A stretch of DNA of 29,723 bases from a virus (lineage: Duplodnaviria > Heunggongvirae > Uroviricota > Caudoviricetes): the IMG/VR virus record IMGVR_UViG_2675903266_000003; one strand, written 5' to 3'. Within the stretch, counting starts at the first letter, position 1. Each line of letters starts with the position of its first letter. Shown one piece after another: positions 3,001-12,000 of the stretch. The position numbers are program-made.

Positions 3001-6000
3001 CTTTTGGTGTTGCCGCCAGTGACTCGGAAGTGCTGTTAGTCGCACTACTGAGCTGTACTATCCCCTTTTTCGTCGTGCTCGCATCCTCAAGCGCCACGGC
3101 GGATGCAATATCCTCTGCCCGTTTTGCCGCTGTCTCAGCGCGCGTTGCTGCAGATTCCGCCGTACTTTTGCTCTGAGCTGCTGCCGTCGCACTACCAGCA
3201 GCCTCTGTCGCCTTCGTGGATGCCGTCGTGGCGCTGCCCTTCGCTGCTGACGCCTGTCTGGTCGCCTCATCTTTTGAAGCAGACGCCGATGATGCCGATG
3301 ACGCCGCCGAACTGGCGGACGATGCGGCAGCCGTTTTTGAGGATTCTGCACGGGTTTCCGACGCTTTCGCGTTCGTTTCGGATGTCTTCGCTGCGGAAGC
3401 TGACCTCGCTGCTGCCGTGGCCTGCTCAGTGGCTTCGCCAGCCTTCGTTGTGGCTGTTGAAGCGGATGATGCGGCGCTTTCTGCCGATTTTCCGGCGGCG
3501 GTGGCACTGGCTGAGGCCTGCCCGGCACTTGTTGACGCGGCGCTGGCAGACGACGCAGCCGCTGTTTTTGAGCCTGCCGCAGCTGAGGCACTCTGTCCCG
3601 CTGCCGTTTCAGAAGACCTGGCGTTCGTCTCGGACGTTTTGGCCGCCTTCGCAGAATTTGCAGCCGCCGTCGCCGAGGAAGCTGCGCTACTGGCGCTTGA
3701 TGATGCGTTCGTTTCTGATGATTTTGCCGCCTCTTTTGAAGCCGACGCATCCCGGGCTGAGGTGGCAGCTTCTGACGCTTTCGTGGTCGCGGTGGATGCA
3801 GAAGTGGCTGCTGATTGTTGTGACGCTGCCGCATTCGTTTCTAACGTTTTCGCCGCACCGGCACTGGTAGCCGCCGCGCTTTTTGAGGACTCTGCAGCGG
3901 CAGCACTTTTTGAGGCTTCAGTGGCCTTTGTTGATGCCGTTCCTGCGCTGGAAGACGCTGACTGAGCCGACGAAGCGGCCTGTCCGGCTGACGTGCTGGC
4001 TGCACGTGCTGAATCTGCAGCATCAGTCGCATGGGTTGCCGCCTCACGGGCTGATGTGCTGGCATCGCTGGCTGATTTCTTCGCGGCTGCCGTGTTCTGT
4101 GCCACCGCGGACGCGTTACGCGCCACCTCTTCCACCATCAGCTCAAAACGGCGCAGTGCCTCCGGACGGGCATCATCCTCCGTCATGGCACCGAGAAAAT
4201 CATTCAGCGTACCGGGTCGGGAATCTTCATACACGGTGATGGTCCCGGCATGTGACGGCGGGAATCCTTCCACCAACAGAATAACGCTGTACTGACCGTA
4301 CTCAACGTCCATGCTGTAACGCCCGGCTTCATCCGGATTTTCTGAGGCCAGCGTGTTCACCACCACCGTGGTGCTGTTACGTTTTGCTTTCAGCTGGATT
4401 GTGCAGTTCTGTACCGGTTTTCCTGTGCCGTCTTTCAGTACACCTGAAATCTTTACTGCCATATTCACCCCACAAAAAAGCCCGCCTGAACCGGCGGGCT
4501 GTCATAACACTGTGTTACCTGGCTAATCAGAATTTATAACCGACACCCACGATGAAACCGTCAGTGCGCCAGAGACGTGTTGCTGTGGCGACCGTCATCA
4601 CTTCCGGTCAGCACATCGTGCGTTTTCCCCTTATTGTCAGTTACGCGGATATAATCCCCGGAAAAAGTCGACACACGGCTGTAAGCCACACCCGCCATCG
4701 CATACGCGCTGAACCATTCATTCACGCGCACAGACGGCCCCGCCATCACGCTGAACCAGCGGTTACGCACGGAATCTTCATGCCAGCGGGTATCGCTGTA
4801 ACGGGTCAGCTGGCGATTCTTGTCTCCTGCATAGCTGAATGACGTCACCAGCCCCAGCGTATCCGTAAACTCATAACGGTATTTCACGTTAATCCCGTTC
4901 AGATCATCACTGCCGGGAACGTTGGTCCGGGCATGAAGATACCCCGCGCTCAGCGTGGACTGATGTTCAGACGCCCATGCAGGCGCACCGGATACGGCCA
5001 GACAGATGGCTGCGGACAAAATGGCTGCACAAACTTTACGCATAATTACCTCTCGCTTTTCTGCAATAAAAAAGGCGTCATTCCTGACGCCATTTATTGG
5101 GGTTATAAATATTTCAACGAATACTGATGCCGGAAGCCGCTTTTTTGGTCACAATCACCGTACAGTCGGTGATATTGCCTGCCCCCTGATTGCCTTTCTG
5201 GAAAATCTTAAACTCCAGAGTGACGCTACCACCACCACTAGGCATATCAATAACTGCACTGTAACTACCGGGAATGGCACCTTTAGTTTCTCTGGATGCG
5301 ATTAATACGCCGTTTTTGCGAACTTCAAAACCATAACCCGTGTATCGCGTGCCTCCTGGGTTATTTCCGCTCCCCGGATCGTCATACGCTATACCGTTAA
5401 AAATAATGGGCGGAATAATAATCTGGCGGTCAAAGTTATGATCATCGCTTATGGTGACTGTAACCGTCCCGTTTGGTGTTTCCGTGTTACCCCACGTACC
5501 AGCCTGTTTCGGAAATGATTTGGATACAGCTTTAACGAAGTCACCTCTGACCTGAGTCGCCTCCAGCATGCCCTTAATCGTACAGTTTTCATTTACCGTG
5601 ACATTGTTGAGCGTCCCGGCGTTCGCATTCACACTGCCACTGATATCCGCATTTTTAGCGGTCAGCTTTCCGTCCGGAGTCAGGGAAAATGCCGATGGAT
5701 TTCCACCGCTGGTAATGGTGGGGGCCGTCAGGCGTTTCAGGAACACGTCGTTCATGAATATCTGATCGCCCTGACCAACAAACATCGGTTTTGTGTTGCC
5801 ATTCGCAGGATTAACCATCGCAATCCTGTCCGCCGCCAGCAGCACCTGACTCTGCATGCCGTCAGGGGTGTTCTCAATACCGGCACCAATACCCGCGATA
5901 TAAAGGCGTCCGTCCTGCATCTGCTGCAGCTTCACAGCCCACATGCTGTTCAGGTTATTATTTGTATCAACCTGAACCTTCTGTATCTGCTGAATTGCCG

Positions 6001-9000: not shown

Positions 9001-12000
9001 TGTCAGACTGTAATTCCCCAGCGCCAGCTGCCTGAAGCGGTATGTGGTTTCCGTCGTCCTGGCTGTGCTGACCAGCCGCTCACTGCCGTCGTCCGCTGCC
9101 ACGGTCAGGCGAAGCAGGAAGCTCACACCCTTCACCACCTTCGGCGTGTCCCATCGCGCCAGCACCTGATATTCCCCGCTGTCTGCGGTGACTTCGGCGG
9201 TCAGATGCTGCACCGCTGGCGGCGTGACACCATTCACCGTGCCGCGCCGGTCACCGTCAAAGTGTGCCCCGTTATCCACGATGGCCTCTTTTTCCGGCAC
9301 ATGCTGCACGGCGGTGATGGCATACGTGCCGTCGTCGTTCTCACGGATACTCACGCAGCGGAACAGACGCTGGCGCAGCGTCGGCAGCTTCAGCCCCCAC
9401 ACGCTGTATACGGAGTCAGGGAAAATGCCGATGGATTTCCACCGCTGGTAATGGTGGGGGCCGTCAGGCGTTTCAGGAACACGTCGTTCATGAATATCTG
9501 ATCGCCCTGACCAACAAACATCGGTTTTGTGTTGCCATTCGCAGGATTAACCATCGCAATCCTGTCCGCCGCCAGCAGCACCTGACTCTGCATGCCGTCA
9601 GGGGTGTTCTCAATACCGGCACCAATACCCGCGATATAAAGGCGTCCGTCCTGCATCTGCTGCAGCTTCACAGCCCACATGCTGTTCAGGTTATTATTTG
9701 TATCAACCTGAACCTTCTGTATCTGCTGAATTGCCGCACTCTGGTCTTCCAGTTTCTTATTGACGGTCTGCGTGATTTCATTGCTGACATCCGTAATGGA
9801 CGTCCTGATTTCAGCCAGGTCAGGCGCAAGCTGACCGTTATCAATCTGCGTCCACAGCTCCTGAGCCAGATGGGTTTTCCCTATCTCGCCTTTGAAAAAA
9901 TCCAGATAACCGGATGCATCATCACTCGGCTGACCAACAGCCTCCACGAATGCCGATTTGCCAACGGTGTTCACACTGCGGATATAAAAGTAATAATCAT
10001 GGCCCGGTTTGATATTGATACTGGCGGCTATCCAGTACAGCGCCGTGCCAAGATAGCGTGCTGTGGTTTCAACCTGCCTGATATCCGCAATCCGCTTTTC
10101 CGAAAACCAGAACTCAAACTGCACCGTCGGGTCATATACAGCCAGTTTCGGGACCGCCGTTATCTGAAAATACCCCGGTATCAGTTCAATAGTGACAGGC
10201 GCTGCCGGTGCCGCAATCCGGAACGATACCGACGCCGGATCGCCCTGCTGCCCCCACGCATTTACTGCCCGGACTGTCAGCCTGTAGTTCCCCAGCGCCA
10301 GTTGTGTGAAGCGGTAAGTGGTTTCCGTCGTCCGGGCCGTGCTGACCAGCCGCTCACTGCCGTCATCCGCTGTTACGGTCAGACGGAGCAGGAAGCTCAC
10401 GCCCTTCACCACCTTCGGCGTGTCCCAGCGCGCCAGCACCTGATATTCCCCGCTGTCTGCGGTGACTTCGGCAGTCAGGTGCTGCACCGCTGGCGGCGTG
10501 ACACCATTCACCGTGCCGCTCTGGTCGCCGTCAAAGTGCGCCCCGTTATCCACGATGGCTTCTTTTTCCGGCACATGCTGCACGGCGGTGATGGCATACG
10601 TGCCGTCGTCGTTCTCACGGATACTCACGCAGCGGAACAATCGCTGGTGCAGCGTCGGCAGCTTCAGCCCCCACACGCTGTATTCAGCAACACCGTCAGG
10701 AACACGGCTCACTTTTACCTTCACGCCGTCGGTGACGGACTGGACCTCCACGCTGACCGGATTCCCCTGCCCGTCAACCAGGCTTATCAGCGTGGTGCCG
10801 GAGGATGGCAGCGTGATTTCACGGTCGAGCGTCAGCGTCCGGGTCTGGCTGTTCACCGCCAGCACGCGCCCGCCGGTGCGGATACCGGCATAGTCATCAT
10901 CGCAGATTTCAATGACATCGCCCGGTACATGACGAAGCCCTTCAGCACCCACGCTGAAATCCACGGTCTGCGTCTCCAGCAGTTCCGTTTTAATCAGCCA
11001 CAGCCCGGCGCGGTGTGCCTGCCCCCGGGCATTTACCGCCCGGACTGTCAGACTGTAATTCCCCAGCGCCAGCTGCCTGAAGCGGTATGTGGTTTCCGTC
11101 GTCCTGGCTGTGCTGACCAGCCGCTCACTGCCGTCGTCCGCTGCCACGGTCAGGCGAAGCAGGAAGCTCACACCCTTCACCACCTTCGGCGTGTCCCATC
11201 GCGCCAGCACCTGATATTCCCCGCTGTCTGCGGTGACTTCGGCGGTCAGATGCTGCACCGCTGGCGGCGTGACACCATTCACCGTGCCGCGCCGGTCACC
11301 GTCAAAGTGCGCCCCGTTATCCACGATGGCTTCTTTTTCCGGCACATGCTGCACGGCGGTGATGGCATACGTGCCGTCGTCGTTCTCACGGATACTCACG
11401 CAGCGGAACAGACGCTGGCGCAGCGTCGGCAGCTTCAGCCCCCACACGCTGTATTCAGCAACACCGTCAGGAACACGGCTCACTTTTACCTTCACGCCGT
11501 CGGTGACGGACTGGACCTCCACGCTGACCGGATTACCGTCAACCAGGCTTATCAGCGTGGTGCCGGAGGATGGCAGCGTGATTTCACGGTCGAGCGTCAG
11601 CGTCCGGGTCTGGCTGTTCACCGCCAGCACGCGCCCGCCGGTGCGGATACCGGCATAGTCATCATCGCAGATTTCAATGACATCGCCCGGTACATGACGA
11701 AGCCCTTCAGCACCCACGCTGAAATCCACGGTCTGCGTCTCCAGCAGTTCCGTTTTAATCAGCCACAGCCCGGCGCGGTGTGCCTGCCCCCGGCTGGTAC
11801 AGCCAAAGGCATCCATCTTCGTGACGTTACGACCGTAACGGACAATGGCCTGCGTATCCTCCACAAGCTCTGTCGCCGTCTCCCAGCCGTTATCCGGGTC
11901 AATCCAGTTCACCTCAACGGCATTATGGCGGTCTTTCAGGGCGCTGAAACTGTAGCGGAACGGCGCGCCATCATCCGGCATCACCACATTACTGCGGTTA

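Follow-up and report, generated by a model that had tools for sequence, protein, structure and literature searches.

In lambda-type phages such as Ayreon (MF807953), phi458 and cdtI, the tail genes follow the order J-lom-stf-tfa, and the locus studied here shares that gene order at ~94% nucleotide identity. It also resembles genuine lambdoid tail-gene mosaicism in having two J alleles, ~90-95% identical, that share segments; however, genuine mosaics are in register and sequenced through, whereas the three joins described below are not in register, and two of them are Ns. A likeness of another kind is to the false joins of assembly pipelines. The authors of the Sanger prokaryote pipeline describe SSPACE and GapFiller as greedy and capable of false joins (PMC5320598). 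The features in common are Ns between contigs linked by read pairs, pieces of paralogous repeats, one closure at 10 nt and one gap left at an allelic cluster; for this comparison, we infer the pipeline behind CXBD01 from its accession series and features.

The stretch of DNA analysed here (the window) corresponds in full to CXBD01000046.1, a 29,723-nt record belonging to the Shigella sonnei draft GCA_001255615.1. A sequence-only reading had described in it a block of second tail-gene alleles lying between identical 632-nt direct repeats (X) within J. As sources of this X-Y-X layout it had proposed integration of a circular intermediate or recombination between resident prophages and, alternatively, an assembly chimera across near-identical prophage repeats. 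Our analysis indicates that the layout is almost certainly a scaffolding and gap-filling artefact of a short-read S. sonnei draft.

Two lambdoid tail loci in S. sonnei

In the four closed assemblies where both were seen (GCA_965230885.1, GCA_040188975.1, GCA_040188935.1 and GCA_040188885.1), two J-lom-stf loci, A and B, lie ~682-686 kb apart. Both are nearly invariant among closed genomes, with an intact J of 1165 aa (A) or 1159 aa (B) where assembly quality permits a full call. The intact locus-A J is also found in Ss046 and 53G, and a few lower-quality closed assemblies show J fragmented. A join between A and B was absent from every closed S. sonnei chromosome examined. Compared with these genomes (locus A from Ss046, CP000038, and 53G, HE616528; both loci from GCA_965230885.1), window positions 1-6306 and most of 11536-19544 correspond to locus A at 99.6-99.97% identity, and 6304-9409 to locus B at 99.97%; lomA in its truncated form, stf' of 122 aa and the IS21 fragment all fall within these matches. 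The difference is one of arrangement: the A and B pieces are interleaved in the record, whereas ~680 kb separates the two loci in closed chromosomes.

The window falls into four contigs (K1 to K4; Table 1). K4, read from 6306 to 1, is 99.97% identical to locus A (reference locus L003), and the stretch from 19544 to 11019 matches locus A at 99.57% overall. By contrast, the stretch from 9409 to 6304, which contains K3, matches positions 7497-10602 of a reference locus B (L013) at 99.97%, with 1 mismatch in 3106, and site typing of K3 gave pure B at 1176 sites. The earlier inference of two resident lambdoid prophage alleles was correct, and the enclosed block belongs to a separate prophage locus, an outcome that the sequence-only reading had itself set against recombination. 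Its account of the block, as an IS21 piece, a truncated stf, a lom and a second J fragment, agrees with the ORFs, the Pfam domains and the istA identity. The IS21 assignment is made by istA identity over a fragment of only ~250 nt, cut at the scaffold gap.

Table 1. Features of the window (positions in nucleotides; strand as reported)
Feature	Position	Strand	Description
Left end of record	1-48	.	Terminal 48 nt of IS1
Contig K4	1-6306		Locus A
Tail fibre assembly gene, locus A	798-1379	-	ORF
Side tail fibre gene stf, locus A	1379-4468	-	ORF
lomA	4561-5043	-	Truncated Ail/Lom gene, 160 aa
J 3' end, locus A	5114-5674	-	Receptor-binding C-terminus; site typing pure A
X copy 1	5675-6306	-	Terminal 632 nt of K4; locus-A J, reference L003 8738-9369
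IS21 istA fragment	~6304-6556	-	98-99.6% identity to annotated IS21 istA genes
Junction J1	6307	.	Single N in public record, A in window; scaffold gap
Contig K3	6308-9409	-	Piece of prophage remnant B: J_B fragment, lomB, stf', IS21 istA fragment
stf'	6537-6905	-	122 aa; Pfam phage_tail_N
lomB	6927-7526	-	199 aa
J_B fragment	7594-9402	-	602 aa
Junction J2	9410	.	Single N in public record, A in window; scaffold gap
Contig K2	9411-11534		A/B mosaic
X copy 2	9411-10042	-	Terminal 632 nt of K2; same locus-A J segment as copy 1
Locus-B-type patch in K2	10043-10247	-	J coordinates ~2100-2305; 26 consecutive B-type sites
Pure locus-A J segment	10248-11028	-	L003 7752-8532; second copy of apparent tandem duplication
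Junction J3	11019-11028	.	10-nt overlap CTGCCCCCGG between two out-of-register J pieces, without N
K2 head	11019-11534	-	Locus-B-like J with two A-type sites, where locus-A sequence belongs
Third N	11535	.	Single N in public record, A in window; replaces 7-nt cluster of A/B differences
J 5' part, locus A	11536-13112	-	End of K1; A-type at 83/84 informative sites
Contig K1	11536-29723		Locus A
Right end of record	29686-29723	.	Terminal 38 nt of IS3-family element

Junctions of the repeated block

Comparison within the window bore out the identical repeats: over their 632 nt, positions 5675-6306 match 9411-10042 at 100%, and the ends of both are abrupt, with 0 bases of extension on either side and flanks that are ~25% identical, that is, random. 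In most of the closed genomes and assemblies used for comparison, locus A contains the first copy at 100% identity. One copy abuts the N at 6307 and the other the N at 9410. The J ORF runs from a start at 13112 to a stop at 9390, 20 nt beyond 9410, as had been claimed.

A base-by-base comparison with the public record showed that positions 6307, 9410 and 11535, all A in the window, are N in the deposited sequence; these were the sole differences over the 19,402 bases compared. Two of the three Ns are the two junctions at which recombination had been placed, and because both are N in the deposited record, neither was ever sequenced. Site typing showed that the window base at 9410 fits neither J allele, and the N at 11535 gives the look of a 6-nt deletion in the window. 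With A in place of N, flagged scaffold gaps look like abrupt recombination junctions; false findings of this class would disappear if Ns were masked or if windows were compared with their records.

Overlaps between the pieces lead to the same reading. K2 and K4 share the 632 nt at 100% identity, and the head of K2 shares 436 nt with K3 at 99.5% (11019-11454 vs 8974-9409), which is the pattern of unmerged overlapping contigs. We propose that the isolate, like the closed S. sonnei genomes examined, has lambdoid prophage sequence at two loci ~680 kb apart whose J-lom-stf regions are paralogous, locus A being a full prophage and locus B an IS-riddled remnant in which stf is cut by IS21. The assembler would have broken the paralogous J region into short contigs, and the scaffolder would have chained both loci as K1(A)-N-K2(A/B mosaic)-N-K3(B)-N-K4(A). 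The 632-nt copies are one locus-A sequence, present at the end of K2 and the start of K4 and flanking the misplaced locus-B contig K3; X was presumably written twice through gap extension from both sides of K3. The tools may have been Velvet, SSPACE and GapFiller, in which case the join at 11019-11028 would be a GapFiller closure at the 10-nt minimum overlap. On this evidence, the duplicated block in J is not a real feature, and the alternative of an assembly chimera raised by the sequence-only reading is supported by the Ns and by the locus origins of the pieces.

Out-of-register pieces within J

The third join lies inside K2, where J contains an in-frame tandem duplication of 771-781 nt (10248-11028 vs 11019-11793). 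Relative to Ayreon and to J_A and J_B, the J pieces form a staircase, stepping backwards and overlapping in J coordinates at every join. The three joins out of register share 10, 0-1 and 3 nt, and the J3 join is in frame. The patch at 10043-10247 has 98.5% identity to locus B vs 89% to locus A; the segment at 10248-11028 matches locus A at 100% in each of 16 loci and carries 51 A-type sites; and the K2 head has 97.6% identity to locus B vs 94.4% to locus A. The haplotype of the K2 head was absent from all sister assemblies compared. Two sites in this head are of A type (J coordinates 1788 and 1809), just 11 nt before a B-type site; they are hard to reconcile with GapFiller 30-mer extension and are not readily explained. 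The breakpoint at 11535, the tandem duplication, the likeness between 8974-9409 and 11019-11454 and the B-type patches had all been missed by the sequence-only reading.

De Bruijn path-switching error alone was rejected as the source of these joins, because they share at most 10 nt. Until the Ns came to light, reference-guided contig ordering had been a candidate as well; scaffolding by read pairs explains the same pattern.

Three artefactual products are encoded in the record: a chimeric J of 1240 aa, for which there are no precomputed Pfam hits, and two fragments, one of 602 aa and one of 374 aa. For both fragments, as for the intact J_A and J_B of the reference loci, precomputed Pfam hits follow the order FNIII-A_GpJ, Phage-tail_3, Ig_J, Ig_J_second, Phage_Tail_Tip and Ig_GpJ_C, which places these proteins with lambda gpJ. 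A spliced version, J* (13112->11019 + 10247->9411 + 5674->5114; 1163 aa), was considered as a real third allele and rejected. Its best match among E. coli genomes was no higher than 96.2%, and none of the sister assemblies shares its haplotype; exact look-up of J*, of an alternative 1165-aa reconstruction, of the 1420-aa duplicated J and of the 1240-aa chimera returned 0 among 15 billion proteins.

Neither the junction at 6307 nor that at 9410 was spanned in 5,426 complete E. coli genomes. Nineteen E. coli genomes (for example, ML35) that were candidates for spanning 9410 were rejected, as alignment traced their matches to another deletion, in a DLP12-like remnant where the order of the two halves is reversed. 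A 34-mer across 9410, which contains the substituted N, had no exact match in GTDB representatives or IMG/VR. The duplicated, interleaved layout occurred in no phage record; in every one, the window segment of 8.8 kb aligns back onto an ordinary J-lom-stf start of 4.4 kb.

Sister drafts and the assembly pipeline

Similar B-N-A joins are present in the sister S. sonnei drafts CXBT01, CXCQ01 and CXDH01 at other coordinates, and CXDK01 has an N-join of a different J allele to locus A. On L003, the N-joins of the four sister drafts fall at 8591, 8450, 8395 and 8561, and that of CXBD01000046.1 falls at 8738. These differing coordinates fit contig ends and not one inherited event. The A/B mosaics, too, differ between sister assemblies. 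In most S. sonnei drafts, the locus-B piece stands on a 5-10-kb contig of its own, and J_A is either whole or split between contigs.

The Sanger pipeline was applied to 299 S. sonnei isolates, with a mean of 405 contigs each, and S. sonnei was among its most fragmented species (PMC5320598). The entries consulted in the supplement of that paper include sibling S. sonnei accessions such as CWWN01 but no CXBD, CXBT, CXDH or CXCQ (PMC5320598). The default minimum overlap with which GapFiller closes a gap is 10 nt (PMC3446322). In the window, the overlap at J3 is exactly that value. The N at 11535 marks a place where A and B differ in a 7-nt cluster and where a GapFiller majority vote would stall. 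What marks such an artefact is found throughout: junctions that are Ns, pieces from different loci, overlaps that equal the duplicated sequence and sister joins at other coordinates. The block has no biological significance, beyond illustrating that the two paralogous lambdoid J-lom-stf regions of S. sonnei tangle in short-read pipelines. Pipelines of this kind have produced thousands of public drafts, whose prophage tail regions may hold similar pseudo-duplications and chimeric ORFs.

Alternative explanations

We considered whether a copy of J_B-lomB-stf'-IS21 from remnant B was really inserted into the J of prophage A, duplicating X and inactivating J. Such an event would proceed through a circular intermediate recombining within X, or through recombination between resident prophages. 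It would account for the X-Y-X layout with its exact 632-nt repeat, and both donor loci are present in S. sonnei, but both junctions are Ns with no sequence behind them and a circular intermediate would itself require two illegitimate A/B joints. Moreover, the loci are kept apart in closed genomes, similar joins occur at different coordinates in sister drafts, and the layout is absent from the closed S. sonnei loci examined, from complete E. coli genomes and from phage records. By our reasoning, a de Bruijn assembler would not have stopped at a junction that was real and unique, X|J_B for example, but would have assembled across it. The listing of the same contig for two samples also favours insertion, and an identical artefact from independent read sets, if such they are, would be surprising and would count against an assembly artefact; the simpler reading of the two-sample listing is a putative duplicate submission. 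With both junctions N and the loci unjoined in the closed chromosomes examined, the two recombination routes put forward by the sequence-only reading are not supported, and we regard insertion as highly improbable. Taken more broadly, the idea that the scaffold order is real, whether through gene conversion from B into the prophage-A J (J coordinates ~1660-2280) or through a genuine duplication-insertion of a locus-B tail segment, is very unlikely; if true, it would be a case in which the resident prophages of a clonal pathogen continue to exchange tail genes.

Serial template switching between A and B (microhomology-mediated break-induced replication), with three backward jumps at 0-10 nt of microhomology, seems exceedingly improbable. 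It would fit three out-of-register joins that each duplicate sequence and share 10, 0-1 and 3 nt, and the in-frame J3 join, yet two of the three joins are Ns and the third overlaps by exactly the gap-closer's minimum. Furthermore, J coordinate ~1663 is both the start of K3 and an A->B switch, and J coordinates ~2093-2100 are both the J3 join and an A->B switch in K2. Breakpoints that coincide with in-register A/B switch points are expected of contig ends in a paralogue tangle and not of random switches. Equally far-fetched, in our view, is a mixed or heterogeneous culture with a rearranged-prophage subpopulation, correctly scaffolded, in which the Ns would be genuine tiny gaps. Mixed templates could be reflected in the A/B mosaic patches, but the species is clonal and yet its sister assemblies differ in these mosaics, both loci hardly vary among closed genomes, and cross-recruitment of paralogous reads is a simpler explanation.

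Record ends and locus-A tail genes

Position 1 of the window maps to L003 15043 in closed genomes, within an IS1 copy whose insA starts at 15051, and positions 1-48 match the reverse complement of the IS1 inverted repeat. At the other end, 29686-29723 agrees with the edge of an IS3-family transposase element annotated in a reference (L001). Ends of this kind, with 48 nt of IS1 on one side and 38 nt of an IS3-family element on the other, are typical of short-read contigs. The identical contig is recorded for two samples, the second of which carries protein CSO22686.1. On the locus-A side, Pfam Caudo_TAP was found on a 193-aa product in the 798-4468 region. Relative to lomB and to phage Ayreon, lomA carries a 77-nt deletion, which is real, because the exact 160-aa product occurs at locus A in closed S. 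sonnei genomes.

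Structure of the repeat-flanked region

Pairwise comparison established that 5675-6306 and 9411-10042 are direct repeats of 632 nt (X) that are 100% identical and extendable by 0 bases; the sequence flanking the two copies is ~25% identical, the random level. By ORF calling, every gene in this region lies on the minus strand. As described by the sequence-only reading, an IS21 remnant, an N-terminal fragment of stf (stf'), a lom gene (lomB) and a J fragment lie between the copies. The J ORF that begins at 13112 (MGKGSSKGH...) crosses the second repeat to stop at 9390, 20 nt beyond 9410.

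Self-BLAST revealed further repeats inside J: 8138-9409 matches 9412-10683 (92.7% identity), 8974-9409 matches 11019-11454 (99.5%) and 10248-11028 matches 11019-11793 (95.8%), with an exact match between the sub-block 10771-11028 and 11536-11793. Read in gene direction, the J pieces each step back in J coordinates; on the normal J-lom-stf region of Escherichia phage Ayreon they fall into four overlapping steps, which reduces the 8.8-kb segment to 4.4 kb. The joined sequences have 10 nt in common at 11019-11028 (CTGCCCCCGG), 3 nt at 6306/6307 and 0-1 nt at 9410/9411, where base 9410 agrees with no allele. There is also an apparent in-frame tandem duplication of ~257 aa within J (10248-11793), with a 13-residue stretch present twice.

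Genes, scaffold pieces and allele assignments in the window (arrows run in gene direction)
Feature	Coordinates	Strand	Remarks
IS21 istA fragment	~6304-6556	-	98-99.6% identity to annotated IS21 istA genes
stf' (stf N-terminal ORF)	6537-6905	-	122 aa
lomB	6927-7526	-	199 aa
J fragment	7594-9402	-	602 aa
Scaffold piece K1	29723->11536
Scaffold piece K2	11534->9411
Scaffold piece K3	9409->6308		locus B
Scaffold piece K4	6306->1		locus A
Site typing	13112->11536		A
Site typing	11534->11019		B-like, with two A-type sites
Segment comparison	11028->10248		100% A
Site typing	10247->10043		B-like
Site typing	X		A
Site typing	9409->6308		pure B
Site typing	6306->4561		pure A

Two prophage loci supply the pieces

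We placed the pieces by exact look-up of two proteins, the 160-aa product of the truncated lom gene lomA and the 122-aa stf' product. Closed Shigella sonnei chromosomes encode both, but each at a locus of its own. One, locus A, is a complete lambdoid prophage (V-G-T-H-M-L-K-I, a J of 1165 aa, lomA, stf, tfa and IS1); the other, locus B, is a remnant riddled with IS elements (an H fragment, M-L-K-I, a J of 1159 aa, lomB, stf', an IS21 fragment and more IS elements), after which come the sit genes. The loci lie ~682-686 kb apart in the four closed assemblies where both were seen (GCA_965230885.1, GCA_040188975.1, GCA_040188935.1 and GCA_040188885.1); in Ss046 and 53G only locus A was seen. J is intact wherever it is fully called in closed assemblies and broken in a few lower-quality ones. 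By BLAST, window 6306->1 is locus A (99.97%; 2 mismatches in 6306) and 9409->6304 is locus B (99.97%; 1 mismatch in 3106), and typing of all sites at which A and B differ gave the allele assignments in the table.

Within the B-like stretch 11019-11534, the two A-type bases occupy J coordinates 1788 and 1809, and a B-type site follows after only 11 nt. This haplotype matched no locus or sister assembly among those examined, and the mosaic could come from a third, small source or be an artefact of the consensus. The stf' ORF stops ~20 nt inside the IS21 fragment (6537-6556), indicating that an IS21 insertion cut short the stf of remnant B; another IS in turn interrupts this IS21 copy in closed genomes (~10826-11982 in the locus-B reference).

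The junctions are gaps in the public record

Exact look-up identified the 602-aa J fragment as S. sonnei protein CSF63337.1/CSO22686.1, and the window as the entire 29,723-nt record CXBD01000046.1 of GCA_001255615.1. The record begins with 48 nt of IS1 and ends with 38 nt of an IS3-family element; such IS ends are the usual termini of short-read contigs. A base-level comparison covering 19,402 nt found exactly three differences between record and window, at 11535, 9410 and 6307, where the record has N and the window A (plus strand). The Ns seem to have been swapped for A during preparation of the window, hiding the scaffold gaps. Thus the sharp breaks that the sequence-only reading saw near 9410 and at 6306/6307 are present in the window, but as junctions they dissolve into single-N scaffold gaps. 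The third N gap, which appears as a 6-nt deletion at ~11538, stands in place of a 7-nt cluster of A/B differences. K2 ends and K4 begins with X, a single 632-nt stretch of locus-A J written twice, with the locus-B contig K3 misplaced between the copies.

The reading of the block as a recombination-type rearrangement therefore fails, because its junctions are N in the record, and the alternative offered beside it, an assembly chimera, is upheld by those Ns together with pieces drawn from two separate loci. Almost certainly, the X-Y-X layout is an artefact of scaffolding and gap filling that interleaved contigs of two paralogous S. sonnei prophage loci; it resembled recombination because the Ns appear as A. 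The layout is real in the window, and we have very little doubt that the rearrangement it suggested is not a real feature. Two samples list this same contig, and 30-mer extension poorly accounts for the two A-type sites in the head of K2; neither caveat restores the junctions, since they are flagged as gaps in the record itself.

Sister drafts of the same accession series contain comparable joins, and the 374-aa locus-A fragment recurs in them. In CXBT01000039, CXCQ01000151 and CXDH01000136, locus B is joined through its IS21 piece to the 3' end of locus-A J across Ns; in CXDK01000122, a different J allele is joined to locus A across an N. On the locus-A reference (L003), these joins fall at 8591, 8450, 8395 and 8561, versus 8738 in CXBD01000046.1, and the A/B mosaic upstream differs from draft to draft, whereas nearly all closed-genome loci compared are mutually identical in the same segments. 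Joins that recur without being identical fit contig ends in a paralogue tangle rather than a single inherited rearrangement. In one closed S. sonnei genome (CP026802.1, 5629-9125 of the locus), the annotation splits locus-A J into products of 721 aa and 374 aa, and the locus has 2 gaps against L003. Either a frameshift caused by long-read indel errors or a true pseudogene is the probable reason, and the split explains the 374-aa product outside chimeric drafts.

Elsewhere, the 6306/6307 junction was spanned in 0 of 5,426 complete E. coli genomes, and no phage record carries the layout. Exact look-ups found neither the chimeric 1240-aa J nor any of three possible repaired J proteins; intact J of both alleles is common in such look-ups. 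Apparent E. coli matches spanning 9410 were rejected, as they represent another deletion, in which the two halves occur in opposite order. One such match comes from E. coli ML35, where a defective prophage resembling DLP12 contains an 858-nt fragment of a J pseudogene (8686-9543 of the locus) with an internal deletion that links the equivalents of window 5879 and 10547 and is unrelated to the window's junctions.

A possible assembly route

The accession series and features of the record fit an origin in the Velvet, SSPACE and GapFiller pipeline of the Sanger Institute; the part of that pipeline's accession list covered here names sibling S. sonnei accessions. The authors applied it to 299 S. 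sonnei isolates, which averaged 405 contigs each, and call SSPACE and GapFiller greedy and capable of false joins (PMC5320598). GapFiller extends both gap edges by 30-mers under a 0.7 majority vote and, by default, closes a gap once the extensions share 10 nt or more (PMC3446322). These rules would account for the 10-nt join, the open gap at 11535 and, plausibly, the doubled X. The 11019-11028 join, which contains no N, would be a closure at a 10-nt overlap; the tandem duplication, which lengthens the J ORF to 1240 aa, is most likely a closure at the default minimum. The gap at 11535 would have stayed open owing to the cluster of allelic differences, and X may have been written twice through extension from K2 and K4 into the two gaps beside K3. 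Locus-B read pairs would connect K2 to K3; K2 has B-identical patches at 10043-10247 and a head that matches the start of K3 at 99.5% identity.

lomA and the side tail fibre

Relative to lomB and Ayreon, lomA (4561-5043) has a 77-nt deletion with its junction at ~4567-4572, which leaves a truncated product of 160 aa. The identical product occurs at locus A of closed S. sonnei genomes, indicating a genuine deletion that is fixed in S. sonnei. The locus-A side tail fibre (1379-4468; ~1027-1029 aa) has no precomputed Pfam match in any S. sonnei locus. In two drafts it is called in fragments, of which the C-terminal part matches Phage_fiber_2 and Collar.
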